IMG/VR virus record: IMGVR_UViG_3300037506_000184
Coordinates: 1-64,000 of that record
Length of the DNA: 64,000 bases
From: a virus
Strand: one strand, 5' to 3'
The first letter of the stretch is position 1. Each line of letters starts with the position of its first letter. The position numbers and the translations under genes were made by a program. Positions 48,226-64,000 of the stretch are shown here, one piece after another. Below the pieces are notes generated by a model. That model saw only the letters and a program-made list of their open reading frames with translations, did no database searches and was not told the origin of the DNA.

Positions 48226-48240
48226 GCCCTGGGAGCAGCG

Positions 48241-48750: not shown

Positions 48751-49305
48751 TCAGACGGGAGGCGCAACGAGCGCACCCACCTTCGCAGCGATCCCGGCCA
48801 CGTCGAACGGCTTGGAGATCACCTCGACAGCGCCGCAACCGATCGCATCCCGTACGTTTTGGGGGTCCGCATGCCCGGTCAGCACGAGTACGCGAACACC
48901 GCGGCGCGTCAGCTCGCGGACCAGCGGCAGACCGTCGAGGCCGGCTCCGATGCGTAGATCGACGATCGCGACGTTGATGACGATGTTTCGCGCGAACCAC
49001 CTGGCCCGCTCCACCGTCTCGGCGGCGAGGTAGCTGCACGAGCTGCCCCAATAGTGCTCGGCGACCTGACGCAGCGACTCGCGCACGCCGAATTCATCGT
49101 CGACGATCAGCAAGGTAAATCGACGGCGGGTCAGCGTTGCTGTCGAATCGTGGCCGTTGCCGCGATCGTGACCGTTGGCGCCTGATTGACGCCCGACTTC
49201 CCCCCCTGCTACTGCCCCGCCAGCCATCGCCAGACCTCCGTTGTCTGGTGTGGTCAGGGTGGCCGTCGCGGGCTGTACTCCGCGGCGGCTGCCCGTCCGC
49301 CTCAC
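48751..49305 (-). CDS. Stand-alone response-regulator receiver protein
   Basis: LLIVDDEFGVRESL, the phospho-acceptor VAIVDLRI, VLVLTGHAD and VISKPFD. An alternative start lies at 49227. Confidence 0.75.
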   Translation of the reverse strand: MRRTGSRRGVQPATATLTTPDNGGLAMAGGAVAGGEVGRQSGANGHDRGNGHDSTATLTRRRFTLLIVDDEFGVRESLRQVAEHYWGSSCSYLAAETVERARWFARNIVINVAIVDLRIGAGLDGLPLVRELTRRGVRVLVLTGHADPQNVRDAIGCGAVEVISKPFDVAGIAAKVGALVAPPV

Positions 49306-49352
49306 ATCTCGTTATGGTGGCTACCACGCTACTGTGTGAGTATCAACCGGAA

Positions 49353-50483
49353 TCACCCGCCGCCGGCCAGTGTGAACCGGAACGCCGCTCCTCTTCCCGG
49401 CTCCGACTCTGCCCATACCCGGCCGCCGTGCCGATGCACGATGCGGCGCACCGTTGCCAGCCCAACCCCGCTTCCGGCGTACTCGTTGCCGTGCAGCCGG
49501 ACGAACGGCGAGAACAGCTTGCCGGCGGTCGACGGGTCGAATCCAATGCCGTTGTCGGCGACGAAGAACGCGCCGTCAGCCGTCCCGATCTCGATGCGCG
49601 CCGCCACCCGATCGCGCGAGTACTTCATCGCATTGCCGATTAGGTTGGTCATCAGCACGCGCATGAGAGCGCTATCGGCCTGCACGGTCAGCCCATCGGC
49701 CACGGCACACTCCACGTCGCGCTCGATCTCTCGCTCTCGCAGCTCCGCAGCCACGGACCTGGCCAGTGCTGAGAGGTCAACCGGCTCAAGTCGCAGATCC
49801 TGCGTCCCGACCCGCGACAGCACCAGCAAGCCGGAGACGATCTCCTCGCAGCGCGACACCGCGACCCGGATTCGCCCCACGTGCCCCTGCGTCTCGGCGC
49901 TGAGAGTGGCGTCTTCCACGATGAGCCGCGCATAGCCGGCGATCACCCGTAGCGGCGCGCGCAGATCATGGCTCACGGCGTAGGCGAACGCCTCCAGCTC
50001 GGTTGCAATTGCCCGTAGCTGTTCGTTGGCCGCCGCCAACTCTTGCCCGCGCCGGACGATCTCCCGCTCGTGCTCGCCCTGGAGCTCGACGAAGGCGGTC
50101 ACGTCCTCGACCCGGTGCAGCACATACGCGACACGGCCATCGATCCAGACCGGCGAGTTGTGCGGCGACCAATGGCGGGTTTCCCACGTGCCGTCGGGCC
50201 GGCGGATCGCGTAACGCTGCACGGCCATCGTATCCGGCTCACCCGACGCCGCTCGCTCGAACGATTCGCGCACGTTTCGCTCGGCGTGAATGTCGGCGTC
50301 CGATTCGGCCTCGGGGAACACGTCGAACACGCCGCGACCAAGGATGGCGTCGCGCCGTGTCATCGTCGCCGCCAGGTAGGCGTCGGAGGCGGCGACGATG
50401 GTGAACGTCGGCGCGTCGGGTAGAAGGAGCAGAAACAAGCAGGATGTCGAGTTGAAGACGTCCTCGAAGGCGACCTCGACCAT
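49353..50483 (-). CDS. Cytoplasmic PAS-domain sensor histidine kinase
   Basis: H-box is FAYAVSHDLRAPL, N-box is LIGNAMKYS, G1 is DNGIGFD and G2 is GSGVGLATV. The N-terminus is PAS-like and has no TM segment. Confidence 0.85.
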   Translation of the reverse strand: MVEVAFEDVFNSTSCLFLLLLPDAPTFTIVAASDAYLAATMTRRDAILGRGVFDVFPEAESDADIHAERNVRESFERAASGEPDTMAVQRYAIRRPDGTWETRHWSPHNSPVWIDGRVAYVLHRVEDVTAFVELQGEHEREIVRRGQELAAANEQLRAIATELEAFAYAVSHDLRAPLRVIAGYARLIVEDATLSAETQGHVGRIRVAVSRCEEIVSGLLVLSRVGTQDLRLEPVDLSALARSVAAELREREIERDVECAVADGLTVQADSALMRVLMTNLIGNAMKYSRDRVAARIEIGTADGAFFVADNGIGFDPSTAGKLFSPFVRLHGNEYAGSGVGLATVRRIVHRHGGRVWAESEPGRGAAFRFTLAGGG

Positions 50484-50490
50484 CGCCCCC

Positions 50491-50670
50491 CTATTCGAGA
50501 TTCTTCAAGGCCTGCTCCATCTCGGTCAGTACCTTGAGGACCGTCTCCTGCAGCCGGTCGTACCGCTTCATGAGCGGCCGGGCGACGAAGACGTAGACAA
50601 TCGCCATGCCGATCACCAGCGTGAGCACGTGGGAGTTTGGATGCTCGAGGAACGGTAGCACCTTCTCCAT
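50491..50670 (-). CDS. Small single-TM protein, 59 aa
   Basis: TGATG overlap with the receiver gene stop (MEKVLPFLEHPNSHVLTLVIGMAIVYVFVARPL...). Confidence 0.4.
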   Translation of the reverse strand: MEKVLPFLEHPNSHVLTLVIGMAIVYVFVARPLMKRYDRLQETVLKVLTEMEQALKNLE

Positions 50671-51125
50671 CAGCGTCCCATCGCGACGAGCTTCTTGCAC
50701 TCGCGCACGCGGCAGAGGAGCTGGCGCGCGAAGGTTCGCCGCTGGTGCTCGTGCCGGACCTTGACCGCCAGCGCATCGATCAGTTGCGCGAGGCCGGTCT
50801 CGTTTATGTCGCCCTTGTACATCACGAGATCCGCGCCGCGCGACATCAGGTCGTCCGACATCGCCTTGTCGACGTGGCCGGTCAGAACGAGAAGCGCCGC
50901 CGGTCCGATCAGCGGGTAGATCCGGTTGAAGGTCTCCGGGTACTCGCCGTTCAGCACGTGGTTGTCGAGCACGACCGCATCGTAGGCGTTGCAGATGAGA
51001 CGTTCCTCGGCCGCAGCAATGGTATCGACGGCGTCGATGTCCATCGAGCGACGGGCGATGCGTGAGCCGAGCTTCAGGTCGTCGGGGTCGTCCTCGATCC
51101 AGAGGATTCGGAGCCGTTCGCTCAT
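50670..51125 (-). CDS. Stand-alone response-regulator receiver protein
   Basis: LRILWIEDDPDD, AVVLDNHV, LLVLTGH and MYKGD. Its ATG overlaps the stop of the transglycosylase-like gene (ATGA). Confidence 0.7.
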   Translation of the reverse strand: MSERLRILWIEDDPDDLKLGSRIARRSMDIDAVDTIAAAEERLICNAYDAVVLDNHVLNGEYPETFNRIYPLIGPAALLVLTGHVDKAMSDDLMSRGADLVMYKGDINETGLAQLIDALAVKVRHEHQRRTFARQLLCRVRECKKLVAMGR

Positions 51126-51604
51126 GCGAGACTCGCCCATCCTGTCGCCCAGCTCGCCGGCCAATCCTTCTTTCGCGGCAAGCCCGGGTTCCAGCATCGC
51201 AAATAATACCTCCACGCCACCTCGCGCTCGTCCGGCAACGGCAGCGGCGCCGGGTCCGTCCATAGCAGGAGCCGCGCAAATCCGGCGGCAAGCGTGTCGC
51301 AGTATTCGACCGCCTGGTACACGGCCGCCGTCGTCGGCTCGACATCCAGAGCGGCGCAGAGCTGGCGCGCGAGATCGCGTGACGCGGGATGCCCGAGGAC
51401 GCCGGAGATCGCCTGCTTCGGCTTCCCTTCGAACTGCCAGTACGAACGGCCTACGCCATTGCCGAGCTGCCGACGGTGGGCGATGTGGGTCTCCTGGAAG
51501 GCGCACGCGACGAGCAGCGCCCGCGCCGCCCGCGAATCCATGCGCGGCGGCAGGAGCGACAGCGCCGGCGTGATGGCGGAGCGTATGAGGACGGCAGGGA
51601 TCAC
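51122..51604 (-). CDS. Putative lytic transglycosylase-like endolysin
   Basis: ACAFQETHIAHRRQLGNGVGRSYWQFE resembles the E...G.xxxWQFE pattern of a phage transglycosylase-like family as I remember it. It lies directly after a holin-like gene. I prefer the GTG at 51604. Confidence 0.45.
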   Translation of the reverse strand: MIPAVLIRSAITPALSLLPPRMDSRAARALLVACAFQETHIAHRRQLGNGVGRSYWQFEGKPKQAISGVLGHPASRDLARQLCAALDVEPTTAAVYQAVEYCDTLAAGFARLLLWTDPAPLPLPDEREVAWRYYLRCWNPGLPRKKDWPASWATGWASLA

Positions 51605-51611
51605 GCCCCAG

Positions 51612-52112
51612 CTACCCCTGCGGCGCGGCCGGCGGCGCCGTCGCTGCCGCCTCCAGCTTGCTGATTGCCGCCCCGACGTCGGCGCCCTTCTGGTAGGCCA
51701 AGACGACCTTCTTCGCATGCTCGGCGACGACAGCGGTCGGCAATGCCTCACCCGGCGCCGCGCTTCTTTCGCCGAGCAGGAAGTGCAGCGACGTCGGCAA
51801 GTACGTCTTGCCGAGCTTGAACATCACCCCGGGCACGCACCCGGCGAGCAGAACCTTCGTCAGTAGCTGGTCGCCGCGGAAGTTGGGCGTGCTCAGCTCC
51901 GTCAAGAGCCCGACGATGAAACCGAGCCCGAGCACGAAGAAGATGTAGTTGTCCGGGTCCTCGAAGGGGCCCTGATACCAGCGCGGCGGGGCACCCGGCT
52001 TACTGATCATGACCGGCTTCAGCAGGCTCGTCAGGACGAACGTGAGCAGGATCATCGGCATGTTGGCGAGCGCCAGCAGGGCGCTCACGGCGTCGGTGAA
52101 GATCTTGTCCAT
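51612..52112 (-). CDS. Holin-like protein with three TM helices
   Basis: Three hydrophobic helices and a charged C-terminal tail, positioned upstream of the lysin-like gene. No family motif recognised. Confidence 0.45.
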   Translation of the reverse strand: MDKIFTDAVSALLALANMPMILLTFVLTSLLKPVMISKPGAPPRWYQGPFEDPDNYIFFVLGLGFIVGLLTELSTPNFRGDQLLTKVLLAGCVPGVMFKLGKTYLPTSLHFLLGERSAAPGEALPTAVVAEHAKKVVLAYQKGADVGAAISKLEAAATAPPAAPQG

Positions 52113-52133
52113 CGCTATCTCTCCTCCCCTCCC

Positions 52134-52508
52134 TCAAAGCTTCGTATCGCGCACGATCACCTGCCCGTCGCACGAGAACTTGTGACCGTTCACGTCCGTG
52201 GCGTTCACGTGGATCTGGTAGCGCGCCTTGTTGGTCCTGCCCGCCGCCTCGAAGATCCAGCAGAACTTCTTCGGGTCGCCCGCGCAGATCGCTGCATTCG
52301 AGACGAGCGAATCCTTGCCGGCGTCGACACCTTCGCGGACGTCGACAGCGATCGTCGCGGTCGCGATGTTCGCCGCACCGCGCGGCGCAAAATCGCAATC
52401 CCAGAGCCAACGCTCGTCTCGCTGGATGACGAGGGTTCCGTTGTCGGCGTGTACGACCGCGGGCGCGAGTAGCGCGGCAAGGATGATCCCGCAAAGTGCA
52501 TTTCTCAT
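52134..52508 (-). CDS. Secreted 124-aa protein
   Basis: ATG at 52508 with a GGGAGG RBS and an ATGA overlap. Signal peptide [21 protein letters not shown]. Confidence 0.5.
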
Positions 52509-53317
52509 GGTGAAGCCTCCCATGGCGCCCCCTTGGCTGGCGCCTCCCATCGGTCTGGCACCGCGTCCGATTCCCAACCGGAAGGCCGCGCCTCTGCCTC
52601 CCATGATCCTCGAGGCAGGATGGGCGTGCTCGATGGCGTTGCCGTTGCCGTGTTCGTCGCCCCCGGCAACGGCGTGCTCGTAGCCGTCGCGGTAGGCGTC
52701 CGGGTAGCCGTCGGCGTCGCCGTTCGGGTCTCCGTCGCCGTCGGCGTCCTCGTTGGAGTCAAGGTGTCGGTCGGTGTGCGCGTCGGCGTCGAGCTCGGCG
52801 TCGGCGTCGACGTCGGGGTCTCCGTAGGTGTGCGCGTTGCCGTCGGAGTCCGTGTCGGCGTGTCCGTCTCCGTCGGCGTCACGGTCGGTGTCGACGTCCT
52901 GGTCGGCGTGTCGGTGGCCGTGGGCGTGCGCGTCGGGGTTGTCGTGGGTGTGTCGGTCGGTGTGTCCGTTCTCGTAGGCGTGGGCGTCGATGTCCTGGTC
53001 GGCGTGCTCGTCGCGGTCGGGGTCGACGTCGGCGTCACGGTGTGGGTCGGTGTCGCCGTAGGCGTGCTGGTCCTCGTCGGCGTGACAGTAGGCGTATCCG
53101 TCTCCGTCGCGGTCGGCTGCGTGCCCGTCGGTGTGGATGTTGGCGAAGCAGTCGGCGTGACCGTGCCCTGATCGCGCAGCAGCAGCGAGACCGCCCCGGC
53201 AGGAGCGGGGGAGAGTAGGACAAGGATGAGGATCAGCCACACGCGCGCTCCGTCAGATCTGGCAATACTTCTGAGCCCCACCGCCCGGCCAATCCTTGCA
53301 GGTCGTGCCCGTGGCAC
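52505..53317 (-). CDS. Secreted Thr/Pro-repeat protein (about 170 residues of TPT repeats) with a Trp-rich tail
   Basis: The frame gives (V)[16 protein letters not shown] followed by TPTxTPT repeats, the same style as 3783-4409. The start is either the ATG at 53317 or the GTG at 53242. Confidence 0.55.
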
Positions 53318-56291
53318 CGGCCGACGTGCAGCTCGCGTCGTTCGTGCACGGGATCAGGATCGGCCGGCAGTCGATCGCTGGGTCATGCTCTGCGCGAAGA
53401 CAAGTTGCGAACATATCGGCGAGCGTCGGCTGCCCCTCGCTGCTCGACAGGTGGATGCCCAGAAAGTCGCTCGCTGGATAGTAGTCGGCGTCGCCCGTCG
53501 GGCTGCGCTCCTGAAACCACTTCTCTTGATCCGCCCAAGCGAGCCCCATCTCGATCGCAAGCTCCCGCTCCCAGGCGCCGAACGTTCTGAACTCGTTGTA
53601 CTGACAGGACCAGCCGGCGCCGAAGTCCTCGTGCGGCGCGTAGGTCGGAGAGATCACCACCCGGACATCTTTTCCGCCCGTGCGCGCGTCCCAGGTCTGC
53701 ACCATCGTGCGAAAGACGTTGCGTACGTAGCTCTGAGACGTCCGCTGCAGACAGATGCCACCCGGGCAGCCCGGCGAGGCGTAGTAGTCCAGCACCTCGC
53801 ACCAGCCGGAGGTCGATCCCTCATTGTCGCACGGACCCGCCGACGACGACGCGATACACGAACCGCCGCCGCTCGTGCAGCTCTCGCCGCACGGCAGGCT
53901 CTTGTTGTTCGAGCAGTAGCTGCAGTCGGTCGCAGACCCACACGCCGTGCCCGCGTTGAAGCCCTTGGTGGCGAACTTGTCGCCGTCGACGCAGAGCGCG
54001 GCGGTCGGAGCTTCCTGCCGGAGCCAGTTGGTTCCATCCGGCAGGTTACATGCTCCGTCGTTGTTCGGACCGCCGCAGGTGCCGCTACACTCCGAGTCGA
54101 TCGCGCAAGGCTTGATGCACTGCCCGAGTCGGCACTTCTCGCCGCCCGAACAGTTGGCGTCGATCGTACACGCCGCGAGGCTCGACTCCGAGCACCACGG
54201 CTGGTAGCAGCGGCCAGCGCGCGGGAACTCCTCCACCCAATCGTTCGCCGCGCAGTCGGCGAAGAGGACGTCGCAGTCCTGGTTGACCGAGCCCTTGTAA
54301 GCCTTGCGGTAGCTCGATGTCCCGTCGGCAATTGCGGTCGTCTGCGCGGCGAAGTCTGCGCACTTTCTTCCGCCCGCGGCCTGCCCGATGATGTCGTCGA
54401 CAGCGATGTCCGCCAGGCGCTCGACGAGCCGCGTGCCGATGTCGTCGCCGTTCCACCGCGAGTCGTTCATGAAGCAGACGGTTCGCCTGCCGTTCCCGTC
54501 GACGTCGGGGAAGGTGACGGCTTTCACGACGCTCGGCAACGTGTAGGTGACGGCAACGAAACCGCTCGTGAAAGCGACCTTGCCGGAGTTGCCGCTGTCT
54601 CCGGTCTGCTTCACCCCCCAATCCATTGTGCCGAAGTTGGAGGTCGTCCAACTGCCGCCGCCTGGTGCAACGTCGAAGATTGCCGTGGGCAGTCCGGCAT
54701 AGTCGTCTTCGGCGGTGTTGTTCACGTTGAAGCTGATCGACTGCGCGCTGCCACCGTCCGCGATCCCATACGAGACTGTTTTGTTCGCGTCCGTCGTGCT
54801 GTTCTCTCGGTACGCTGCCGAGACCGCGACCCAGGCATCACTTTCGAGCGTACCGGCGACCGGCGAGGGCGACGGCCACGGGCTGTGCGTGACGCGCTCC
54901 TCTTCGTTCAGCGCGCAGACGAGGCGTGTCGTTTGGCCGTCGGCTCGGCCGACTCCACCACTCGTGTCGTCGACGCAGGCGCCGTGATCGGTGCAGCCCG
55001 TTGCCTCGCAGGAGTTGATGCCGGCTGCCGCCACCAAATCGCTCACAAGCCAGCGTCGATCGAGGGCCTTTTGCAAGTCCCCCGGCGTCGCGTTCAAATC
55101 GTAGTGCTCGATGTTGTCGAAGCGGATGAACATATCCTGCGCGGCCTTCGACGAGTCGGCTACGCCCCAACGCGAGCGCGCGACGTTTGCGATCACACTC
55201 GACGGGTTCGTGCACGTGCCGCCTCCGTCGCAGTCTCCGTTGATGCTGCATGCGGTGCCGGCCTCGGTGCCCCCCGTGCACGATCCCTGGGGCCGCTGCC
55301 CGCCGCCGATCTCGACCGCGCCCTTGTTCGGGAGACTCGTCGGGTTGTCGGCGTACAGGGTACACTGTACGTTGTATCCACCGAGGCCGAGGAAGTTGCG
55401 CGTCTCGACACAGACCTTGCGCCGCTGGCCGATGGTGAGGGTCAACTTCGAGTAGGTCGCCTTGCTGCACTTCGGTACGCCGCCGACCTCGGCGGGACAC
55501 TGCCCCCCTGAGGGCGCGCAGGAGTCGTCATTACCAGCGCACTTCGTGCAATGCGTTCCGTCAGTGAACGACTCCTCACACTCGAATTGGTCCTCGTCGT
55601 TGAAGTGAACCCGGAGAGTCCGTCGGGTGAAGTGCTGTGGCCCCCCACCGAACGCCGCCGGTGGGCAGTAGGTGGCGTTGTTGTCGCAGCCCACCGTAAT
55701 CACGCACTGGCGCACGCCGCCGCTCGACTCGGTGATGATGATCGGCACCTCGCCGAGTCCCATCCCGCACGCGCCGCCAGCACAATCTGCATTGCTCGCG
55801 CACGGCACGGTGGTGTTGTTGGTGCAGCGGCCGAGAAGCGTGACGTCGGCGCAGTCGAGAGAGCGCGGCGTTGCCGTGAAGTTGACGGGCATCGTCGCGC
55901 TTCGCCCCTGCTCAACGGCCATGTCGGCCTGGAAGTGGGACCACGGATTCGTGTCGTTTACGATCTCGAACGGCAGCTCGCAATTCTCAGTGCCGGCGCA
56001 GTCGTCATCCTCGTCGCAGGTGGTTCCCGAGAGCGCGACGCAGTAGCCGCGATTGAGATTGCAGGTCTGGCCGCCGCCGCAATCCCCGTCGACGACGCAA
56101 GGGCGGGCGCAGAAGCCAGCGCTGATCGCTCCGAGTGTCGGAATCTCCAGCTCACCGTCGACGATGATGCCGGACGTCGCGCCGAGTGGAGCGGTCGCAC
56201 CGAGCTCGAAGGGGATGACCACCGTAGGCTTCGCCCAGGCGGGGACCGCAACGAGCGCAATCGCGATCGTCAGGGCAGAAGTCCGTCGCAT
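53253..56291 (-). CDS. 1012-aa secreted cysteine-rich protein
   Basis: Signal peptide [20 protein letters not shown]. Repeated D(G/D/A)DC..G..C knots occur ([49 protein letters not shown]). The C-terminal region has MNDS and D..GIH, faintly SGNH-hydrolase-like. Confidence 0.7.
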
Positions 56292-56785
56292 GCGATCCCC
56301 GGGCTTGTCGGCCCGTCGCTCATACTCTCGGGCGCGTCTGGCGCGCCGCCGTAGATCCAGTGCCGAGGGTTGCTCGGGTCACGGGTCCAGAGCACCGACC
56401 AGTGCTGCGGCACCTCGAACAGGCGCTCGTCGGGTCCGAGGGTCCGGCCTGTGATCGGGTCGCGGTAGCCGGTCGTGTGCATGACGCACGGCAGCGTGTA
56501 CCGCACGTCGAATCCTTTCGGCGCCGCCTTCGGATCGCTCGCGGTCACGATCTCGCACGAGGTGTTGTCGGCCGCGACGGTCACCGTCCCGTGGTGCTGG
56601 ATGCCGTGGATGGTCGGAGAGACCGAGCAGGCGATCTTGGCCAGCGAAGCGCGACGTTCTGCTTTCTCGGCGCGGGCACGAAGAGTCCGTTTCGCGCGAG
56701 GCTCCGAGCGGCGCTCCAAACGCTCGACCGCATGGGTCGCCATCGGCAGGAGCGCGATCAGTAGGACGAGCAGTTTCCGTGACAC
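56270..56785 (-). CDS. Secreted 171-aa protein
   Basis: GTG at 56785 with a GGAGGAA RBS. Signal peptide VSRKLLVLLIALLPMATHA. Confidence 0.5.
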   Translation of the reverse strand: MSRKLLVLLIALLPMATHAVERLERRSEPRAKRTLRARAEKAERRASLAKIACSVSPTIHGIQHHGTVTVAADNTSCEIVTASDPKAAPKGFDVRYTLPCVMHTTGYRDPITGRTLGPDERLFEVPQHWSVLWTRDPSNPRHWIYGGAPDAPESMSDGPTSPGIACDGLLP

Positions 56786-58443
56786 GCGTTTCCTCCGGTC
56801 AGGCTGTAGGTGATCACCATTCCGGCACCGCCGGCGCCGCCGGTGCCGCACGTCGAGACAGCGCTGCCGCCCGTGCCTCCGGAGCACGTCGTGGTCACCG
56901 AGTTCCAGGTGACGGCAGACGCGATGATGAGGGCGTTGCCGCTTCCACCGCCGCCCGCCGATCCAGACGTCGAGCCGTTGCCAGCAGCATTGCCTGATAG
57001 GTCAATCGTCGCGCCGTCGAAGGTGGCCGTGCCCATACAAGCCACGACCAAGCCCCCACCACCGAAGCCGCCAGCACCAACCGTCCCGGAGGCGCCTGAC
57101 GGGCAACCACCTCCACCACCTCCGGTGCTTCCGAGTGCCGGCCGCTCGAACCAGAGGGTGTCCGCACCCGTGCCGGCGCCGCTCACTGGCGCAGCACCTC
57201 CACCAGAGCCGCCAAGAAATGGTAAAGCCTGTCCTGGAGCCCAACTGAACCAGGCTGTACGATTGCCAGCACCACCGTTCACGGAAGAAGTCGTACCCGC
57301 CGCGCCACCACCGAGCATCGTTGAGTGGCCCGGCTTCCCTGCCTGGTTGGCTGCGAGAGTGCCCCCAGCCACCGAGCACCCACCCAAGCCCTTGAGGTTG
57401 ATCTTCCCGTTTACCGTACAGTCGCCTCGAACGTAGAGCTGGAGCTGCGACGCCGCTGCGTTCAGGCAACCGGCGGTCACCGTGCGATCGATGGTGACGG
57501 TCCAGTCCGACGCAATGCTGAGCGACGAGAACTGCTTCAGGAAGCTCGGGGTGTTGTAGGTGTTGATCGAGTTGAACGCGCCGATGTGGGAGTTGGGAGT
57601 GAGCTTGCAGGTGCAGGAGTAGGAGTTGTCCGGGGTGTTGGTTCCGCTACAGCCCCCGGTGCAGGCCGCAGGGCAGTTGCCGGACCCTGGGGTCGTCCCG
57701 CAGCTTGCCCCCGAGCTTACGTCGGGCAGCGTGAACGCACCATCGGCACCGCTCCCCCAGAAAGTCGGGTCTGGGCCGGTTTCCTTGTAGGTGTCGGGAA
57801 TATGGGTGTTGGTGTGCACGGCGCTGATTGCGGCGTTCTCGTCCTCGTACATGGTCTCGTCGATCGTGCAGGTCTTGCCGACCGAGTTCCCGCAGAGGGT
57901 GAAGGTGGAACCGGCAGAAACGTCGCACTCGCCAGCGGAGCAGGTGACGTCGAACTCCAGGCCGAAGTCGATGAGCGATCCAACGCCTTGCAAGCTGTTG
58001 TTCCGCTTGACGCTCATCGGCGCGATCCGCTTCCACTCGCTCGCGATGTTGCAGGTGCCGTCGCCCGTCAGGCAGAGCCAACACTTCCAGTCATCCTCGT
58101 CGCAACAGACTTCGCGGGGCTTGCCGTCGGTAATGGTCGTGCAATCCGTGTCGTGGCTGCGCCAGCCGAGGATGTTCGAGCCGCTTGGCCGCGTTGTGTC
58201 GGTGCCTGAGTCGCCGCCGTCGATCGTCTTGTTGGTGAGCGTCTGCGCGCTGCTGAGATCCGCCGCGACGAAGCACGCGGTCCCCGTGTCGGTCCCGTTG
58301 TTCTTGACGCTCTCGTTCGCGGCGCAGTTGGGAACCGCAATTGCACCGTTGGCGCAGGTCGCGAAATCGCCCGAGCAGGTGAGCGCGTGCGCCGTCGACG
58401 CCGAGAGGAGCGCCAGCAGGGCGAGTGAGAACCAGCGCTTCAT
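56758..58443 (-). CDS. Tail-fibre-like protein with a signal peptide, a Cys-rich middle and a Gly-rich C-terminus
   Basis: Signal peptide MKRWFSLALLALLSASTAHA. SAQTLTNKTI is a motif common in phage fibres. The C-terminus has GGGGGCPSGASGTVGAGGFGGGG and GGGGSGNALII tracts. Confidence 0.65.
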   Translation of the reverse strand: MKRWFSLALLALLSASTAHALTCSGDFATCANGAIAVPNCAANESVKNNGTDTGTACFVAADLSSAQTLTNKTIDGGDSGTDTTRPSGSNILGWRSHDTDCTTITDGKPREVCCDEDDWKCWLCLTGDGTCNIASEWKRIAPMSVKRNNSLQGVGSLIDFGLEFDVTCSAGECDVSAGSTFTLCGNSVGKTCTIDETMYEDENAAISAVHTNTHIPDTYKETGPDPTFWGSGADGAFTLPDVSSGASCGTTPGSGNCPAACTGGCSGTNTPDNSYSCTCKLTPNSHIGAFNSINTYNTPSFLKQFSSLSIASDWTVTIDRTVTAGCLNAAASQLQLYVRGDCTVNGKINLKGLGGCSVAGGTLAANQAGKPGHSTMLGGGAAGTTSSVNGGAGNRTAWFSWAPGQALPFLGGSGGGAAPVSGAGTGADTLWFERPALGSTGGGGGGCPSGASGTVGAGGFGGGGLVVACMGTATFDGATIDLSGNAAGNGSTSGSAGGGGSGNALIIASAVTWNSVTTTCSGGTGGSAVSTCGTGGAGGAGMVITYSLTGGNACHGNCSSY

Positions 58444-59450
58444 CAGGCGATGCGCTCCGCCGTGCACGAGATCGTCGCATTCGCCGCCGTGGCCGATGCG
58501 ACAGCCCTGATCGCCACGCACTGGCCGGCCGTCGTCGAGCTGGTGGAGGCACCCGAATCACAGGTCGTTCCCGACGCGCTGATCTGGCACTGCGCCTTGG
58601 TCGTGTAGGAGATCGACCCGCAAGTGCCGGTGCCGATCGTGATCGTGAACGTATCCGAGCCGCCCGGCGCCGTGCTCGATCGGCAGTTGATGTTCTCGAA
58701 GGTCGCTGCCGCGTCGGTGGGAGCCGCCACGTTGGCCTCGGTCGCGTCGACCAGCCCCGGCCAGATGTAGACCGTGGAGCCGGACGTGAGCGGCATGCCC
58801 GTGCCGAAGCCGATCAGCGGCTTGATCTGCGTCGTCGTCGTGTCGAGATCGGAGGCGACGCCGTCCTGGCACTTCTTGAGCTTGTTCTCGGAGAGGTCGG
58901 CGAAGATGTTGTAGTTGCCGGTAGTGCAGCCGGGGTTGGTATCCGACTCGTCGAACTCGATGCCGAGGTTGTCGGTAACGAGCTGGCCGGTCAGGGTGCC
59001 GCCGGCGAGAGGGAGATAGCTGCTCGCCGTGATGTTGTCCGGCACGTCGTTGTCGCTGATCGTGCCGACGCTGACGGTGCCGCCGACGGACGATTGCTTG
59101 AGAAACTGGTTCGCGCCGCCCGTCGCCGAGAGGTCCGCTCCCGTGCCGCCCTTCCCGACCGGCACCTGCGCCGAGATCGACCACGTTCCGGTGTTGATCG
59201 TTGGCACGCCCGTCGAGGCAGAGGTATCGAGTCCGGTGCCGCCGTTGGCCGCCGGAACCTGGCCCGTGAGCGCGCAGCTCCCGTTTTGACAGGTGATGTT
59301 TTGCCCGCCGGTGATGGCACGCGCGGGAAGCGTGTTCAGCGAAAGGCTCGCCGTCCACATCAGCAGCCAGCCAAGCAGCGCCACGATGCCAGGCCGTGAC
59401 GGCCGACGCTTCGTGAATCGCCCTCGTGCGTCTCTCGGTTGATCGTTCAT
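58443..59450 (-). CDS. Tail-fibre-like protein with an N-terminal signal/anchor
   Basis: VPAANGGTGLDTSA, VGKGGTGADLSATG and YLPLAGGTLTGQL are classic fibre N-terminal motifs. They are preceded by RRPSRPGIVALLGWLLMWTASLSL. Confidence 0.65.
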   Translation of the reverse strand: MNDQPRDARGRFTKRRPSRPGIVALLGWLLMWTASLSLNTLPARAITGGQNITCQNGSCALTGQVPAANGGTGLDTSASTGVPTINTGTWSISAQVPVGKGGTGADLSATGGANQFLKQSSVGGTVSVGTISDNDVPDNITASSYLPLAGGTLTGQLVTDNLGIEFDESDTNPGCTTGNYNIFADLSENKLKKCQDGVASDLDTTTTQIKPLIGFGTGMPLTSGSTVYIWPGLVDATEANVAAPTDAAATFENINCRSSTAPGGSDTFTITIGTGTCGSISYTTKAQCQISASGTTCDSGASTSSTTAGQCVAIRAVASATAANATISCTAERIA

Positions 59451-59460
59451 CGCATCCTCC

Positions 59461-59919
59461 TCACTGCACTTCGAGTCTGAACGTTGGGACCGAGGTCGCT
59501 GCCCCGGACGAATAGGTGACCTTGACCGCGCCGCACTCGGCGACGAGGACGGAGGCGCTTCCGCTGCCTTCCTTCGCGGCGTTGGTGATCGAACAGGCGA
59601 GCGACGTCGGGGACGCCGCGCCCAAGGTGCCGCAGTCGCCGCTCACGACGGCGAGAGTCACCGTCTCCCCGGTGCCGGGTGCCGTCGTCACCGTGCAGCG
59701 CATGGTGCGCAGACGAAGCCCGTCGACCGGCACCTGTACCTCGTCGGGATCGAGGCTCACGTTGTCGCCGTCGAGCGGCATCCAGACGACGGTGCTGGAC
59801 GTGATCGGCGTGACCGCGCTGCCCGAGAGCGGCACTCGACGAGGTGGCCGCTCGGGTGGTTCGATCGCCCCGGCAGCCAAGGCGACCATGAGCAGGGCGA
59901 GGCAGAGGAAGCGCCTCAC
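59461..59919 (-). CDS. Secreted 152-aa protein
   Basis: The GTG at 59919 forms a GTGA overlap. Signal peptide VRRFLCLALLMVALAAGA. Confidence 0.5.
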   Translation of the reverse strand: MRRFLCLALLMVALAAGAIEPPERPPRRVPLSGSAVTPITSSTVVWMPLDGDNVSLDPDEVQVPVDGLRLRTMRCTVTTAPGTGETVTLAVVSGDCGTLGAASPTSLACSITNAAKEGSGSASVLVAECGAVKVTYSSGAATSVPTFRLEVQ

Positions 59920-60299
59920 GTGCCTTCCTCCTCGTCCTCCGCGTCCTCGAGCCGGTCGTGGGCAAGCTCGATCTGGGTGTAGACTTGGCCCTTCCGGACG
60001 TGGGCCAGCTCGGGTCGACTGCGCACGTAGATCCAGATCCGCTCGAACGCTGCGGCTCGTTTGTCTGGGACCGGCGGGTCGGCGTTCTCGACGTCGAGCA
60101 CGGTGTTCTCGACGACGGCGACGAAGACCTCCCACTCCCGGTTCCTCTCCTCGTCGGTGGCGTCGGGCATGCCGCGCTCGATCGATTTGGCTAGCCACTT
60201 GACCGAGACGACGAGCAGCTCGACGACCGACTTCGCGAGCTGTGGCGCAAGCGAGATCAGGGCCTCGGCGAAGGCGTCTTTTGCGGCGTCCTTCTTCAT
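59916..60299 (-). CDS. Hypothetical 127-aa protein without a signal peptide
   Basis: ATG at 60299 with an ATGA overlap (MKKDAAKDAFAEALISLAPQLAK...). Confidence 0.45.
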   Translation of the reverse strand: MKKDAAKDAFAEALISLAPQLAKSVVELLVVSVKWLAKSIERGMPDATDEERNREWEVFVAVVENTVLDVENADPPVPDKRAAAFERIWIYVRSRPELAHVRKGQVYTQIELAHDRLEDAEDEEEGT

Positions 60300-60883
60300 C
60301 CGCCGCACTCGATGTTGAGCGTCTCGCCCGACGTCCCCACCACGTAGATCGAGGACGCGTCGCGGCGATCCGATGGGCTGGTCGATCCCGACCACGGCAC
60401 CTTCACGCCAGTGTCGCAGTCGGTATCCAGGGTCGCGGGGCCGTAGCAGAACGGGCCTGCGTCCTCCGGATCGAGCCAGAGGGCGCACGAATAGGCGGGG
60501 GTGTAGGCGCCGCCGAAGAGCTGCTGGACCGATCCCGTGAGCGTCAGGCGCGCGCGCCAGGGACCGACGACGGGAACGAGGTACATGCCCTCCGCGCGCC
60601 GCTCCTCGCACGTACACGTGCCAGCGCCAGCGCCCGTGCAGCAGAGCCCTGGATCACCGGAGCCGACGCAAGCCGCATCGCAATCCCCATCGGTAGCGCA
60701 GAGGATCGAGGTGTCGCCCCAGCCGGCGCACTCGCCTTGGCTGTAGGTGTGGATCGGCACGGAGCCGACGCCCTGGTTGTCGAGCGTGCCGGTGCCGACG
60801 GACTGCGGGACGATCTGGGCGTAGGCCGGCAGCGCGGCCAGCGCTACCACCGCCACCAGAACCAGCCTCAGCCATCGCGCCAT
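60296..60883 (-). CDS. Secreted Cys-rich 195-aa protein
   Basis: Signal peptide MARWLRLVLVAVVALAALPAYA, followed by a CATDGDCDAACVGSGDPGLCC knot. Confidence 0.55.
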   Translation of the reverse strand: MARWLRLVLVAVVALAALPAYAQIVPQSVGTGTLDNQGVGSVPIHTYSQGECAGWGDTSILCATDGDCDAACVGSGDPGLCCTGAGAGTCTCEERRAEGMYLVPVVGPWRARLTLTGSVQQLFGGAYTPAYSCALWLDPEDAGPFCYGPATLDTDCDTGVKVPWSGSTSPSDRRDASSIYVVGTSGETLNIECGG

Positions 60884-60901
60884 GCGTCGCCCTCCGACTT
60901 C

Positions 60902-60962
60902 CCGGGCGGCATGTGTCGGCGGGCCTCCGAAGAGGGCGGCTCGACGCGGGCCGGTTCGCTAT
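60902..60962 (-). repeat. Copy A of a conserved ~62-nt intergenic element
   Basis: CCGGGCGGCATGTGTCG...GGCTCGACGCGGGCCGGTTCGCTAT. It aligns with 63120-63182 with conserved flanks around a variable central hairpin. It lies between an upstream stop and the next start. Confidence 0.6.
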
Positions 60963-60983
60963 GTTTCCCTTATCAGCTCTTGG

Positions 60984-63107
60984 TCAATGATTCACGTCCG
61001 AGCCCATGCCGGTGCTGGGCGTCTCCAGTACCAGATCGACCACGTTGGTGTTGATCGAGTTCGTGGTGTTCGCCGCGTCCACCACGATCGTGAGGTTCAT
61101 CATGTCGCCGGGGTCACACTGGTAGGCCGCGCCGGCGCTGGTGGAACAGTCCAGATTCACGTGAACGCACTCCTGGGTGTTGGCCGCCAGGTAGGTGATG
61201 TCGGCGTTCACCGCGTTGCTGAGCGCCCCCCAGGCCTGCCCGAGCCCGGTGCAACGGCAGGAAACGTCCATCGCGCTCGTCTCGGTCGTGCTCGATCCGC
61301 TGTTGACGCAGATCGTGAGCCCGGCATCGACTTGCACGCCAGCCGCGTACCCGTAGCCCGAGACCGTGTAGTCGTCGGGCAGCCGATACTGCACGTCGAT
61401 CTGGCTACCGGCGTTGTCGGCGCAGACGATCGGGTTGATGTACGGCCCCGAGCCGACCTGGGTCCGGCCGCCGAGCACGCAATTGGTTCCGTCGAGCACG
61501 GCGGACGGCATGAGCGAGACGGCACGGCCGGGAATCGGCGCGTCCGGCTCACCACGAATGACGGCCGTCGAAGAGTTCTCGTCGACGAGAGTTTCCCTCA
61601 CCGTGATCGAGGTCGACGCGACGGAGGCGACGGTCTTTCTCCCGTTGTTTCCCGCGTTCGCTGCCTCGAAGATGTTGATCTTCTGCCCGACGTTGAACCT
61701 GTATCCCTCATCGGTGTGTCCGGTCATGGTGATGGTTTTCGTCGAGGCCGTGAACTGCAGATTCCCCGACGTCCCGGCACCACGAATCGGGATCGTCCCC
61801 ACCGAGTGATACGTGACCGCAGTCGGCCGGTCCCACTCCGAGAGGCGCCAGATCGGCACGCCGCCGCCAGCCGTGTTGTTCCAGCCCATCAGGTAGACGC
61901 GGCCCCGACCGTCGAAGGCCATGTCGAACGCCTGCCGGGGAAAGGTGTCGTACCTCACCGCTTGGCGCGTGTTCGGGTCGAAACGGATCACGAAGTCGCC
62001 GAGCACCGGATTCGCGGCCGATCCGTGCCAGCCGCTCCACACGTACTGGCCGTCACAGTAGATCCCCCAGAACGAATCCGAATTCTTGCCGAAATACAGG
62101 TACTCTTGCACCTCCATTGTGTCGACGTCGATGCGCGCGAGCTGGCCGAATCTCGGGGCGCCAAGAGAGATCTCGCCGCCGACGTAGAGGTATTGCCCGC
62201 AGAGTGCGCTCTCATCGCCGGTCGCGAGCAGTGACGTCTTCTGCGCGACCACCGTCATCGTCGATGCGTCAACTTTCCACACGTCCGTCTCGTTCGTGCC
62301 CGTGCCGTCGCCGATGATCATCGCGTACAGGTAGCCGTCGCCGTATTCGAGGGTGTGGCAGCCGCGGTCGGTGCCGGTGAGTGTCGCCGAGCCTACTGAC
62401 GTCCCCGTGTCCGGATCGAGCTTGTAGATCACGGCCGGGTTTCCCCCGCAGGCGTAGAGGTATCGTTCGTCGGTGTCGCAGCTCTCGGCAACGCTCCAGT
62501 TGGTCGGGTTCACGCCCGCGAAAGGTTCGGTGTAAGTCATCGCTACGGGATCAACCGCCGTCACGCCGATCTCGTTCGGTGGCGCGTTCTCGCTGCCGGC
62601 GTGGCAGACGTACACCTTGTCAGTCCGCGCCATGTAGACGAGCTTGTCGGCGTGCTCGTGCGCGTCGTCGTTCGTGAGCGGCGGTGAGAGTTCAGTCTCT
62701 CCCGTGAGGTTTTCATCCACGCGAACCACTCGGAAGGGTCCAGACGTCGTCCCGCGATGCAGCGCGAAAAGCTTTCGGTGCTGCTCGACCCAGATCAGAT
62801 CATGCGCGAGATTGAACCCGGACGGCAGGTGATAAGTGATCGTCTTCCCCGACACGTAGGGCAGATCGAGGGCGTGCGCTGTATAGGGAGAGTTCATCGG
62901 CGAGCCGACGGCGCCCTGCCGCCGATCGAGATCCCTCCACCCGGCGTTGTCCGCGTCGACCGCTTCGAGCGACATGCCCGGGTCGAAATCGGCGCTGCGC
63001 TTCTGCATGCCGCGCTGGCGATTGTAGACGCCGTCTTCCTCCGCAACGGCCACTGACGCGACCAGCGCCAGCGCCACCACTCCCGCGATTGCTCGAACCA
63101 TGCCCAT
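60984..63107 (-). CDS. Secreted 707-aa beta-propeller-like protein
   Basis: Signal peptide MGMVRAIAGVVALALVASVAVA. Repeated YLY.../VW.. blade-like segments. The C-terminal third is Cys-containing and beta-rich. Confidence 0.6.
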   Translation of the reverse strand: MGMVRAIAGVVALALVASVAVAEEDGVYNRQRGMQKRSADFDPGMSLEAVDADNAGWRDLDRRQGAVGSPMNSPYTAHALDLPYVSGKTITYHLPSGFNLAHDLIWVEQHRKLFALHRGTTSGPFRVVRVDENLTGETELSPPLTNDDAHEHADKLVYMARTDKVYVCHAGSENAPPNEIGVTAVDPVAMTYTEPFAGVNPTNWSVAESCDTDERYLYACGGNPAVIYKLDPDTGTSVGSATLTGTDRGCHTLEYGDGYLYAMIIGDGTGTNETDVWKVDASTMTVVAQKTSLLATGDESALCGQYLYVGGEISLGAPRFGQLARIDVDTMEVQEYLYFGKNSDSFWGIYCDGQYVWSGWHGSAANPVLGDFVIRFDPNTRQAVRYDTFPRQAFDMAFDGRGRVYLMGWNNTAGGGVPIWRLSEWDRPTAVTYHSVGTIPIRGAGTSGNLQFTASTKTITMTGHTDEGYRFNVGQKINIFEAANAGNNGRKTVASVASTSITVRETLVDENSSTAVIRGEPDAPIPGRAVSLMPSAVLDGTNCVLGGRTQVGSGPYINPIVCADNAGSQIDVQYRLPDDYTVSGYGYAAGVQVDAGLTICVNSGSSTTETSAMDVSCRCTGLGQAWGALSNAVNADITYLAANTQECVHVNLDCSTSAGAAYQCDPGDMMNLTIVVDAANTTNSINTNVVDLVLETPSTGMGSDVNH

Positions 63108-63119
63108 CGTCTCCGATCT

Positions 63120-63182
63120 CCGGGCGGCATGGTGTCGAGCGGGGCCGTGAGGGCGCGGCTCGAACGCGGGCCGGTTTGCTGT
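63120..63182 (-). repeat. Copy B of the conserved ~62-nt intergenic element
   Basis: CCGGGCGGCATGGTGTCG...GGCTCGAACGCGGGCCGGTTTGCTGT. It occupies the same position relative to the flanking stop and start as copy A. Confidence 0.6.
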
Positions 63183-63185
63183 CGT

Positions 63186-63368
63186 TCAGCCTTTCTGCTG
63201 TTTCTCGGATTCCTTTTCTTCTGCCGCGAGCTTGAGAAGCCCCGTGATATGTCGGCGGCCCACCTCGCTGTTCCAAAGCACTTCGAACGCACCCTTCGCG
63301 TGACGTTTCATGTCCCGCTCGCGCTGCTCGTGCTTCTCCTGCTCGGTCGATTCAATCCTGCCGTTCAT
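63186..63368 (-). CDS. Hypothetical charged 60-aa protein
   Basis: ATGA overlap with the upstream stop (MNGRIESTEQEKHEQRERDMKRH...). Confidence 0.4.
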   Translation of the reverse strand: MNGRIESTEQEKHEQRERDMKRHAKGAFEVLWNSEVGRRHITGLLKLAAEEKESEKQQKG

Positions 63369-63994
63369 GTCGTCGGCGCCTCGTAGAGAATCACGGTGAC
63401 CGACAGGTTGATCGTCCCGCCGGTGAACGTGCCGCCACGCGGGGTGAAGATCAGGTCCGTGGCTGCGCGGATCTTCAGAAAGTCCGCCGTGCCCTTGTCG
63501 TTCGCGCGCGTGTTCACCGCCACGGGCTCGTTGTCGCCGAAGGCGCGGAGCGCGCCGCTCACGCCGAGATCCCAGCCGGTACACCCGGTCACGGTGGCCT
63601 CGACGTCATAACCGATGTCGAGAACGAGGCAGTGCGCAGGCAGGGCGTTCGTGATCGTAGCGCTTGCGCCCGAGAGGCCCGACTTCGTGAGCTCGATTAC
63701 GCGCTGGCGGAAACGGCCGCCGCCGCTGCGTCCCTGTAACGAGAGGATCTTCGACGTCTTGTCGTAGGTGAGGCCGAGATCGGCGCCGAACGAACCGCCA
63801 TCGTTGAACTGCACTTGGGTGTCGACCCCGCCGGGGGTTCCTGACCCGCCGCCGCCCGTCGAAATCTTCGACTCGTTTCCGAAATCGTCGCGGAAGTATG
63901 GGCCGTCGGCCTTGAAGTAGAACTGCCAGTAGTTCGACGGTGGAAGGCTGGACGGCGTCGACATCTCGCGCCATTCGAGCTGGCCTGGGGGCAT
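63365..63994 (-). CDS. Tail-fibre/collar-like protein
   Basis: GGVDTQVQFNDGGSFGADLGLTYDKTSKIL matches the common fibre N-terminal motif (QFN..G.FGG...TYD). No signal peptide. The start is close to the window edge. Confidence 0.55.
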   Translation of the reverse strand: MPPGQLEWREMSTPSSLPPSNYWQFYFKADGPYFRDDFGNESKISTGGGGSGTPGGVDTQVQFNDGGSFGADLGLTYDKTSKILSLQGRSGGGRFRQRVIELTKSGLSGASATITNALPAHCLVLDIGYDVEATVTGCTGWDLGVSGALRAFGDNEPVAVNTRANDKGTADFLKIRAATDLIFTPRGGTFTGGTINLSVTVILYEAPTT

Positions 63995-64000
63995 CCATCG

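Follow-up and report, generated by a model that had tools for sequence, protein, structure and literature searches.

A block of predicted exported, cysteine-rich proteins with tail-fibre-like modules in the late operon of an uncultured phage

Lom and Bor of lambda and Cor of phi80 and HK022 are phage-encoded, exported proteins of the envelope or of exclusion. Virion tailspikes and fibres can themselves be enzymes, as in the SGNH esterase or beta-helix depolymerase tailspikes, e.g., G7C gp63.1 and P22 gp9. Spanins and LysB of mycobacteriophages, the latter an esterase, are lysis accessories that act beyond the inner membrane. The T5 lipoprotein Llp blocks FhuA (PMC9586334). In Bdellovibrio bacteriovorus, the mosaic adhesive trimer (MAT) fibres are related to tail fibres, carry a signal peptide, are exported, and form a multi-member family with interchangeable tips (PMC10769870). 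All MATs share a beta-rich domain of ~130 amino acids (aa) after the signal peptide, 13 of the 21 end in an S74 chaperone-protease, and C1q/TNF structure papers are among the references of that study (PMC10769870). Here, a block of ten consecutive genes at positions 52134-63107 of the first 64,000 nucleotides (nt) of the IMG/VR virus record IMGVR_UViG_3300037506_000184 (the whole stretch is called the window) is described. Nine of the ten products are predicted to be exported, and modules of the tail-fibre type recur among them.

The closest analogues of the block are the MAT adhesins (PMC10769870) and single exported receptor blockers such as Llp (PMC9586334), neither of which is a phage-borne, multi-gene, cysteine-rich cassette. 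Like the MATs, the block proteins are signal-bearing, fibre-related, and multi-member, a likeness drawn by description only; the MATs, however, belong to a cellular predator and not to a phage operon, and no S74 domain was detected in the window proteins. With Llp, Lom, Bor, and Cor, the block would share the principle of phage products with export signals that act in the envelope of the producer against re-adsorption or superinfection, or to alter the surface. Each of those products is a single small protein, a lipoprotein or an outer-membrane barrel, that has no relation to fibres and as a rule is expressed early or from its own transcript, whereas the block comprises nine large, cysteine-rich proteins of receptor-binding protein (RBP) modules in a late operon, with signals of the signal peptidase I (SPase I) type and no lipobox. 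Virion tailspike enzymes resemble the block in their glycan-directed domains (a probable SGNH domain in g1012, beta-helix and ConA-like lectin domains in sister proteins), modular evolution, and tail-gene neighbours, but the known ones have no signal peptide, an N-terminal particle-binding domain, few cysteines, and cytoplasmic folding. Spanins and LysB are likewise exported or envelope-acting and encoded next to a holin; LysB is a small cutinase-like enzyme lacking the signal peptide and the cysteine-rich repeats of g1012. Literature searches yielded no description of signal-bearing, RBP-like clusters in phages. With a probability of roughly one half, the products of the block are taken to be RBP-like proteins that are expressed late, exported, and disulfide-bonded, and that work on the host envelope instead of being virion components of the classical kind.

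Export signals and cysteine content of the block

The ten genes lie on the minus strand and fill the interval (Table 1), in frames backed by the GC content at third codon positions (GC3). Their N-termini were scored with a home-made heuristic for n-, h-, and c-regions and an AXA site. This lenient heuristic flagged nine of the ten block genes and 10 of the 58 genes elsewhere in the window (Fisher p = 1.6e-5), and the chance of at least nine in ten at the lenient background rate is 1.1e-6 (binomial). The N-termini conform to SPase I substrates in their basic n-region, uncharged h-region of ~8-20 residues, and small residues at -3 and -1, with the sites AYA/Q, AHA/L, THA/V, AWA/K, ARA/I, and VHA/D (slashes mark predicted cleavage); gTPT, read from GTG 53242, has an n-region that is not basic. 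All nine are thus predicted to be Sec-type (SPase I) signal peptides, in agreement with the original prediction, which had listed nine signal peptides or anchors in ten consecutive genes. A pattern scan for the lipobox [LVI][ASTVI][GAS]C found none in 52134-63107, the only candidates being at 5864 (-) and 19726 (-). The twin-arginine translocation (Tat) motif S/T-R-R-x-F-L-K was not seen by eye: KRRPSRPG of g335 does not match it, and the other proteins have no RR pair in context. Lipoprotein or Tat export of the block proteins was rejected for want of a motif.

Wrong starts or frames could give chance hydrophobic N-termini in GC-rich DNA, where high GC yields many long alternative open reading frames (ORFs). 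The frame of gTPT is indeed ambiguous, and public gene calls place the starts of g335, g152, and g171 further downstream, giving products of 313, 142, and 157 aa, respectively. Every possible start of each gene was therefore listed with its 20 nt upstream. The starts that include a signal are mostly preceded by a Shine-Dalgarno motif (GGAGG, AGGAGG, or GGAG) at -6 to -12, the proper distance, while internal starts have none. The same N-terminal architecture is found in homologues of very different sequence and GC content, and the binomial chance given above is low. An artefact of this kind is hardly credible, and mis-called starts were ruled out by the Shine-Dalgarno motifs and the conservation of the signals; the earlier concern that the true starts might lie downstream of the hydrophobic segments appears unfounded.

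The signals have been kept across homologues while the mature proteins diverge to 33-57% identity. Signal-bearing homologues occur in the loci L003, L004, L031, and L032, among the proteins P0004-P0030 and P0065-P0068, and in eight of the ten viral contigs returned by a scan of IMG/VR with the g335 module, where the signal is on the module protein. The IMG/VR locus L003 encodes homologues of g195 (57%), g152 (33%), g335 (35%, partial), g561 (83% over the C-terminal 420 aa), g171 (91%), and g1012 (91%). All of them except that of g171, whose N-terminus was not inspected, were found to begin in a signal-like manner. The loci L004-L007 contain the trio g561 (54%), g171 (41%), and g1012 (54%), with the signals MEVKQLGAGRFWLLVATVLALIALSLARVDA/Q, MLRKLHRLLIALVVLSLASPALA/R, and MRRTLAVIALLAIASVTEA/A. 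The g561 homologues in L003 and L004 have signal peptides, but their N-terminal regions differ from that of g561. L031 and L032 possess blocks of the g195/g127/g152/g335 type, followed by more signal-bearing, cysteine-rich proteins with 39 and 66 cysteines. A hydrophobic N-terminus followed by VHA is kept in the g195 homologues of L003 and L031 (64%), and a signal peptide is present in the g152 homologues of L003, L031 (79%), and L032 (37%) as well as in four of four full-length g707 homologues (P0065-P0068). In L031 and L032, the g335 homologue and the esterase likewise retain a signal. The protein g335 has 57 homologues. A signal is present in 17 of the 19 that are full-length and bear its module, against 11 of 30 that match the generic GGTG repeats only (p = 3e-4).

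Comparison by eye showed that the signal peptide stands in place of the anchor in signal-bearing relatives, with the shaft or repeat directly after it. Signal-less fibres begin in the fibre manner, with MPSVFPTS... in the 785-aa fibre protein upstream of the block (u785) and MPTVFDQP... in P0031 and P0039. The N-terminus of u785, MPSVFPTSLDSW... (MPSVFPTSLD...), is of the fibre-anchor type, and that of P0069 looks P2-type fibre-like by eye.

The block also differs from its upstream neighbours in cysteine content. The cysteine-containing mature products have 2.0-6.9% Cys (64 residues in g1012 and 29 in g561) and gTPT has none, compared with 0.25-1.5% in the signal-less virion proteins just upstream. 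The number of cysteines is even in seven of the eight cysteine-containing mature products (p = 0.035), and two cysteines of the g335 module are invariant in a 20-member alignment. This pattern is the one expected of disulfide-bonded extracytoplasmic proteins and suggests that the products may be of this kind. Four independent lines, i.e., conservation, cysteine content, cysteine parity, and architecture, argue that the predicted signals are real.

Modules of the block proteins

The fibre-type character is clearest in g335, which combines GGTG repeats, the motif YLPLAGGTLTGQL, a module running from YLPLAGGTLTGQLVTDNLGIEFDESDTNPGC to KLKKCQDG, and a C-terminal jelly-roll knob. In an AlphaFold2 (AF2) model built from 24 sequences, residues 170-335 form a C-terminal beta-sandwich with a predicted local distance difference test (pLDDT) score of ~85-93; ahead of it are an extended region of low confidence and, at residues 20-38, an N-terminal helix. 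Foldseek comparison of this model with viral models returned collagen-like, C1q, Mtd-N, and Stf-repeat fibre proteins with E values down to 9e-9. Against the PDB no match fell below E = 0.01; only weak jelly-roll and TNF/C1q matches were obtained, together with the fibre of Agrobacterium phage 7-7-1. A fibre shaft with a distal knob was found in g335 only, among the block proteins. In g561, QTLTNKTI is present, and the AF2 model from a four-sequence alignment was unusable (pLDDT 33), so that its fibre-like nature is suggested by motifs only. The motifs on which the original prediction relied are accordingly present in both proteins, and of the fibre-like pair that it put forward for structure prediction, g335 yielded the shaft and the jelly-roll knob while g561 did not give a usable structure.

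Family scans with Pfam, PHROG, and NCBIfam gave almost no matches for the block proteins. Curated tail-fibre profiles of Pfam and PHROG matched none of the nine, whereas the signal-less fibre proteins u249 and u785 do match tail-fibre PHROGs. Sequence searches of the PDB with g335, g561, g1012, and g707 gave no match, and by-eye comparison found no N-terminal tail or baseplate anchor domain in the signal-bearing proteins.

The protein g707 may contain a beta-propeller; it has propeller-like repeats at ~60-440, a small beta domain at 440-520, and a cysteine-containing C-terminal domain at 538-691. Its match to DUF6923 reaches 22.9 bits, under the cut-off of 27, and the repeats of its homologues have the form DGxYLY...KID..T. 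The same blades also occur in signal-less fibre-like proteins, and the beta domain of ~80 aa is common in phage structural proteins. The C-terminal domain is common to P0098, P0101, and the signal-bearing P0110, and a likeness to the C-termini of P0022, P0024, P0025, and P0028, which are signal-bearing relatives of g335, was seen by eye.

The largest product, g1012, is all but unique: a set of 5.8 billion proteins contains only two 90% clusters of it. Residues ~600-960 are probably an SGNH/GDSL esterase domain, as judged from blocks I-III, which are invariant in a four-member alignment (A3): D610-S611-R612 (NDSR; GDSR in L031), G640-G641, and N683-D684. The protein also has cysteine-rich inserts. 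Sister proteins in other phages contain right-handed beta-helix, ConA-like lectin, and GDSL signatures, all of them glycan-directed domains, and one sister protein with 52 cysteines is tailspike-like by eye. The overall list of parts is suggestive of receptor-binding and receptor-modifying proteins.

Recurrence and genomic setting

The public contig L002 is identical to the window and extends past base 64000. Beyond the window it encodes DUF2460 and phiJL001-Gp84/BR0599 proteins, a 155-aa protein, a 1573-aa J-like tip protein (Phage-tail_3; PHROG 'tail protein', E = 4e-47), and the fibre proteins of 249 aa (u249) and 785 aa (u785). The 155-aa protein has a weak minor-tail PHROG match, and a peptidase is guessed from its position in tails of the gene transfer agent (GTA) type. 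The block prolongs this late operon, in which the J-like tip protein is followed by the signal-less tail fibres, the block, and a possible holin. The protein u785 matches the tail-fibre profiles phrog_9942 and phrog_15388, has no signal peptide, and contains 3 Cys in 785 aa. A fibre-like gene without signal peptide had been placed at 63365-63994, just upstream of the block. Both properties hold, but the 209-aa ORF was rejected as a separate gene since it is a fragment of the 785-aa gene, whose C-terminal 211 aa lie in the window, and it does not adjoin the block, a 60-aa gene (63186-63368) standing between it and g707. The broader proposal of exported proteins made of fibre-type modules at the place of host-recognition genes fits the conserved signals, the cysteine pattern, the position after tip and fibres, and the g335 model, with export being predicted.

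Similar runs were found in at least 12 uncultured phage contigs with a GC content of 0.44-0.67, in which the gene calls are partly crude ORF picks. The neighbours of the module protein are often signal-bearing and cysteine-rich, as are seven of eight consecutive genes in L038, four in L042, three or four in L035, and three in L040. Four consecutive signal-bearing genes in L008 encode a beta-helix protein, a fibre, a lectin, and an 846-aa protein, and terminase and portal genes are followed by a signal-bearing block in L010. The position of the cassette varies. In the window and L004 it follows the tail fibres, in L003 it lies between head-morphogenesis/DarB-like genes and protease/major capsid protein genes, in L031 a DarB-like helicase precedes it, and in L035 and L041 it comes immediately downstream of the major capsid gene, ahead of the tail terminator and the tape measure. 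Such mobility suits an accessory module better than core virion parts.

These positions also bear on the possibility that the products are true virion RBPs, which would be exported, form their disulfides in the periplasm, and dock on particles assembled in the cytoplasm once the holin breaches the inner membrane or after lysis. The block directly follows the J-like protein and the tail fibres in the window and L004, lies inside head-tail structural modules in L035 and L041, and shares modules with signal-less fibre-type proteins. Its mosaic divergence between the window and L003 (33-91%) is typical of host-range genes, and the tailspike-like domains of sister proteins and the large coding investment point the same way. 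In-vitro complementation in T4 demonstrated that fibres can join finished particles outside the cell, a further argument for virion RBPs. On the other side, the signal-bearing proteins do not have the N-terminal anchor regions of signal-less fibres, the position of the cassette shifts between related phages, and the window phage is already equipped with two signal-less fibres (249 and 785 aa) and the 1573-aa J-like protein. To our knowledge, no tailed phage assembles its fibres by periplasmic export and late docking, and a literature search for tailed phages with periplasm-folded, late-docking fibres found none. Virion RBPs are considered unlikely, and the more general idea that a class of tailed phages folds fibres, spikes, and esterases in the periplasm, exported by Sec and locked by disulfides, for attachment when the holin opens the inner membrane, seems distinctly unlikely. 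The mobility of the cassette within late regions, and the ordinary fibres that the phage already possesses, favour a role of the block outside the virion.

The g335 module is not restricted to phages; the original prediction had raised the question of homologues outside prophages for whole clusters. A scan of species-representative genomes found it in giant proteins (1200-3100 aa) of metagenome-assembled genomes (MAGs) of Saccharibacteria, Patescibacteria, and Planctomycetes. Many of these proteins begin with a signal or an anchor. The shared module, LPLAGGTLTGQL-DNLGIEF-SDTNPxC-KLKKC, is 57-77% identical over ~50 residues, and it is the one module that these surface proteins have in common with the block. 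The two giant-protein loci inspected with their flanks (L028 and L025) are chromosomal, lie in cell-surface neighbourhoods, and contain no phage genes. In L028, the giant protein (5645-12436) has S74 chaperone and YadA-head fibre-like neighbours, and the locus looks like a MAT-like fibre cluster in an episymbiont genome. In L025, the neighbours are WxL-interacting and PKD proteins plus housekeeping genes.

Table 1. Features of the block and of its flanks in the window (SD, Shine-Dalgarno motif; signal peptides are predictions; a slash marks the predicted cleavage site)
Feature	Coordinates	Strand	Remarks
u785, tail-fibre protein, C-terminal 211 aa of 785 aa	63365..64000, continues past window	-	L002 7386-9743, 100% identical to window
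60-aa gene	63186..63368	-	no signal peptide; L002 gene call; overlaps fibre gene stop by 4 nt
Intergenic element, copy 1, ~75 nt	63108..63182	-	upstream of g707
g707	60984..63107	-	ATG 63107; signal peptide MGMVRAIAGVVALALVASVAVA/EEDG
Intergenic element, copy 2, ~75 nt	60884..60962	-	upstream of g195
g195	60296..60883	-	ATG 60883, SD GGAGG at -9; signal peptide MARWLRLVLVAVVALAALPAYA/QIVP; 12 Cys in mature protein
g127	59916..60299	-	sole block gene without signal peptide; no Cys; acidic C-terminus
g152	59461..59919	-	GTG 59919, SD AGGAGG at -10; signal peptide MRRFLCLALLMVALAAGA/IEPP
g335, fibre-like	58443..59450	-	ATG 59450, SD AGGAGG at -8; long basic n-region, h-region 20-38, predicted cleavage ARA/ITGG
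g561	56758..58443	-	ATG 58443; signal peptide MKRWFSLALLALLSASTAHA/LTCSG; QTLTNKTI; 29 Cys; Gly-rich C-terminal half
g171	56270..56785	-	GTG 56785, SD GGAGG at -8; signal peptide MSRKLLVLLIALLPMATHA/VERL, basic stretch, then small 4-Cys domain
g1012	53253..56291	-	ATG 56291; signal peptide, then KPTV; 64 Cys; Cys-rich repeats
gTPT, ~245 aa	52505..53242	-	GTG 53242, GGAG upstream; hydrophobic N-terminus, then VSL, ~200 aa of Thr/Pro repeats
g124	52134..52508	-	ATG 52508, GGAGG 7 nt upstream, ATGA overlap with gTPT stop; signal peptide, then DNG; 4 mature Cys
g166, multi-pass membrane protein, possible holin	51612..52112	-	hydrophobic segments; follows block
160-aa protein, PHROG 3108 (function unknown)	51122..51604	-	E = 1e-37 to phrog_3108

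The only block gene without a signal, g127, has a 65% identical homologue at the same position in L031. The frame of gTPT overlaps an alternative, Asp/His-rich ORF of 368 aa at 52134-53240 (-), which is chosen by public (Prodigal-type) gene calls; both frames have high GC3, and base composition cannot separate them. TPT tracts occur at the same place in L031, in the TP-rich tail of the esterase homologue, and at the C-terminus of the g707 homologue P0068. The gTPT frame is favoured because of the ATGA overlap and strong Shine-Dalgarno motif of g124 and the TPT tracts at equivalent places in relatives.

The genes are tightly packed, with junctions of -28 to +21 nt from the fibre gene via the possible holin to the response regulator, including several ATGA-type overlaps. 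The exceptions are the spacers of 78 and 100 nt that flank g707. These share an element of ~75 nt, which is similar over most of its length with several short indels. Only these two copies exist, none being found elsewhere in the window or in the fetched loci, and no convincing conserved RNA fold was detected. As g707 is absent from the related cassettes of L003 and L031, the element may mark a cassette-insertion junction; it may also be a regulatory site. No sigma-70-like promoter or minus-strand terminator was found in 48000-64000 by a scan that covers only E. coli-type signals.

The genes might instead serve lysogenic conversion, in the manner of morons, with surface adhesins or enzymes, or superinfection exclusion, expressed from the prophage. 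The phage is temperate, with a tyrosine integrase at 16234-17529 (-), and the two spacers with the repeated element could hold a promoter. Other exported or lipoprotein genes lie at 5373-7625 and 18917-19843, Saccharibacteria and Planctomycetes use the module in proteins of the cell surface, and signal-bearing, phage-fibre-like adhesins are known from Bdellovibrio (PMC10769870). Classical morons, however, are independently transcribed (PMC6469090), whereas the block genes overlap or nearly abut and are co-oriented with the tail genes and the genes downstream. On these overlaps, and with no promoter or terminator found in the E. coli-centric scan, independent moron units were rejected. Several contigs with such runs also show no integrase in the stretch read, which is weak evidence as these are parts of contigs. 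Taken as a whole, lysogenic conversion appears quite improbable.

Two genes follow the block that may belong to lysis. The possible holin g166 has no family match of its own; a 70% identical homologue occupies the same position in L004, where a weak Phage_holin_6_1 gene lies two genes further on. The 160-aa PHROG 3108 protein is a possible lysin, from an SLT-like QET...WQF motif seen by eye, and its homologue in L003 is placed elsewhere, beside head genes. In this neighbourhood, g561, g171, and g1012 could be thought of as lysis machinery, a periplasmic esterase complex that would attack outer-membrane lipids or wall-linked polymers and stand in for spanins, much like LysB of mycobacteriophages. 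The trio lies upstream of small membrane or holin-like genes, abutting them in L003 and within two genes in the window and L004, and the SGNH blocks of g1012 are conserved. No spanin-like lipoprotein or transmembrane pair was found near the possible lysis genes; the region 49000-53500 contains no lipobox, and the site of g124 is of the SPase I type. On the other hand, g1012 (1012 aa, 64 Cys) far exceeds the known lysis accessories in size, the presence of g335 (fibre-like), g707, and their partners would be left unexplained, and the holin assignment is weak, with a 'weak' Pfam match in L004 only. A lysis function of the trio is very improbable.

The window has a GC content of 66% throughout and belongs to the genome of a temperate tailed phage (siphophage), which is probably circular. 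Its plus-strand genes include a YqaJ exonuclease, an SMC-like ATPase, a C5 methylase, a DUF5131 protein, a HerA-like ATPase, and ArdC, and the large terminase is encoded at 43830-45374. A portal fused to a head-morphogenesis/protease-like domain (892 aa) is found at 45547-48225 (+), while the far end of the window carries the prohead protease/major-head gene on the other strand, at 310-1704 (-). Such an arrangement implies a circular map with a terminase-portal unit convergent on the other late genes. The longest public contig with g1012 has 83,857 bp. Metagenome samples of this phage are JGI 3300043180, SRR12687782, and IMG/VR 3300037506. The minus-strand structural operon probably wraps around a circular genome of ~84 kb, with the block at its downstream end.

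No close cultured phage was found for this genome. Among cultured phages, megablast with 52000-64000 and tblastn with g335 and g1012 gave no match; tblastn with g707 gave a single weak match, to an uncultured 636-kb phage, and the best match of the large terminase is 41% identical, in Aeromonas phage 56. The J-like tip protein has its nearest counterparts in Acinetobacter, Brevundimonas, and Pseudomonas siphophages, which makes a Gram-negative host, and hence a periplasm, likely; on this weak evidence, the host is perhaps a high-GC proteobacterium. An actinobacterial (mycolata) host, with an analogy to LysB, was considered because of the 66% GC and a homologue binned to a Mycobacterium MAG, and was rejected as that contig is only 1.9 kb long and the tail tip is like those of proteobacterial phages.

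Further genes of the window are of interest in their own right. The genes that trail the block are followed directly, on the minus strand, by those of a PAS histidine kinase (49353-50483) and of a receiver-only response regulator (50670-51125). L004 has a counterpart in this position (14425-17270): its kinase is 49-71% identical in two segments, one receiver shows weak similarity (27%), and another receiver is present as well. Phage late operons do not usually end in a conserved two-component system. Matches of the kinase are scattered over Deinococcus, haloarchaea, and Streptomyces, and no host was deduced from them. At 5373-7625 (-), a 566-aa protein with a classical signal, MMLAVLLLMVSLLPAPAFA/EDWSQFRRDERHSGW, is propeller-like by eye in the manner of pyrroloquinoline quinone (PQQ) proteins and has no Pfam or NCBIfam match; a 163-aa lipoprotein candidate, MKWTREAVAVAIAAMLMVSGC, is next to it. 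Near the integrase, at 18917-19843 (-), a 157-aa protein with the signal peptide MTMPGIALLLAAATVLA/QNG and a 93-aa lipoprotein candidate (start 19726) are in a moron-like position. A DNA-modification and anti-restriction set at 26832-29422, 33690-34817, and 39459-40370 (+) comprises a C5 cytosine methylase, a weak Mom-like match, DUF5131, and ArdC with a metallopeptidase domain.

Proposed role of the block

For the reading preferred here, that of exported, envelope-acting proteins, we infer export itself, the target, and the benefit to the phage as follows. The cassette would share its transcription with the tail genes and with the genes that follow it. Sec would recognise each product by its classical n/h/c signal, cleavage would follow at the AXA site, and the cysteines would be oxidised outside the cytoplasm. 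The proteins may then bind and modify glycans of the host envelope, either in the periplasm of a Gram-negative host or after release at lysis, and not on the virion. Likely purposes would be the masking or destruction of receptors on the producing cell and its debris, or the stripping of surface polymers. The proteins might also trim nascent polysaccharide in the periplasm or be released as free depolymerase-like factors. The parts proposed for this task are the shaft and jelly-roll knob of g335, the propeller-like repeats and shared cysteine-containing tip domain of g707, the Gly/Cys-rich g561, and the probable SGNH esterase g1012, while g195, g152, g171, g124, and gTPT would be small partners in the cassette. 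The most economical reading is that RBP-derived binders and enzymes have swapped the particle anchor for an export signal.

Several points weigh against this reading. The block occupies 11 kb, ~13% of the genome, a large investment for accessory proteins. In several phages it sits within structural modules, and its modules are shuffled as in RBPs, both of which fit virion proteins equally. A plain Sec signal in a Gram-negative host reaches the periplasm only, and no lipobox, autotransporter, or sorting tag for outer-membrane or surface targeting was found in the block proteins. The heuristic for signals is lenient, as its 10 positives among 58 background genes indicate. Block V (DxxH) of the esterase is atypical, with four or five residues and not two between D and H; g1012 has DFLGIH, with four, and L031 has a DQAH nearby. 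Pfam GDSL_2 gave no match for g1012, and the scores of its homologues P0002 (31.9 bits) and in L031 (22.4 bits) are under the cut-off of 32.9. The holin and lysin assignments downstream of the block are also weak.

If the proteins are exported, phages devote large late-operon cassettes to secreted RBP-like binders and enzymes, which standard annotation labels as 'hypothetical' or 'tail fibre'. Host-range tools that count each fibre-like gene as a virion RBP would then be misled. Such cassettes would represent an unexplored route by which phages reshape or mask the host surface during infection, as well as a source of disulfide-stabilised glycan-binding and glycan-cleaving proteins for biotechnology. 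If the proteins are virion parts instead, the assembly pathway of tailed phages needs a periplasmic branch, and such a compartment-split virion assembly would have no known precedent in Caudoviricetes. Either way, the shared module ties these phage proteins to giant surface proteins of Saccharibacteria and Planctomycetes, and suggests that adhesion modules may have been exchanged between phages and cell surfaces.

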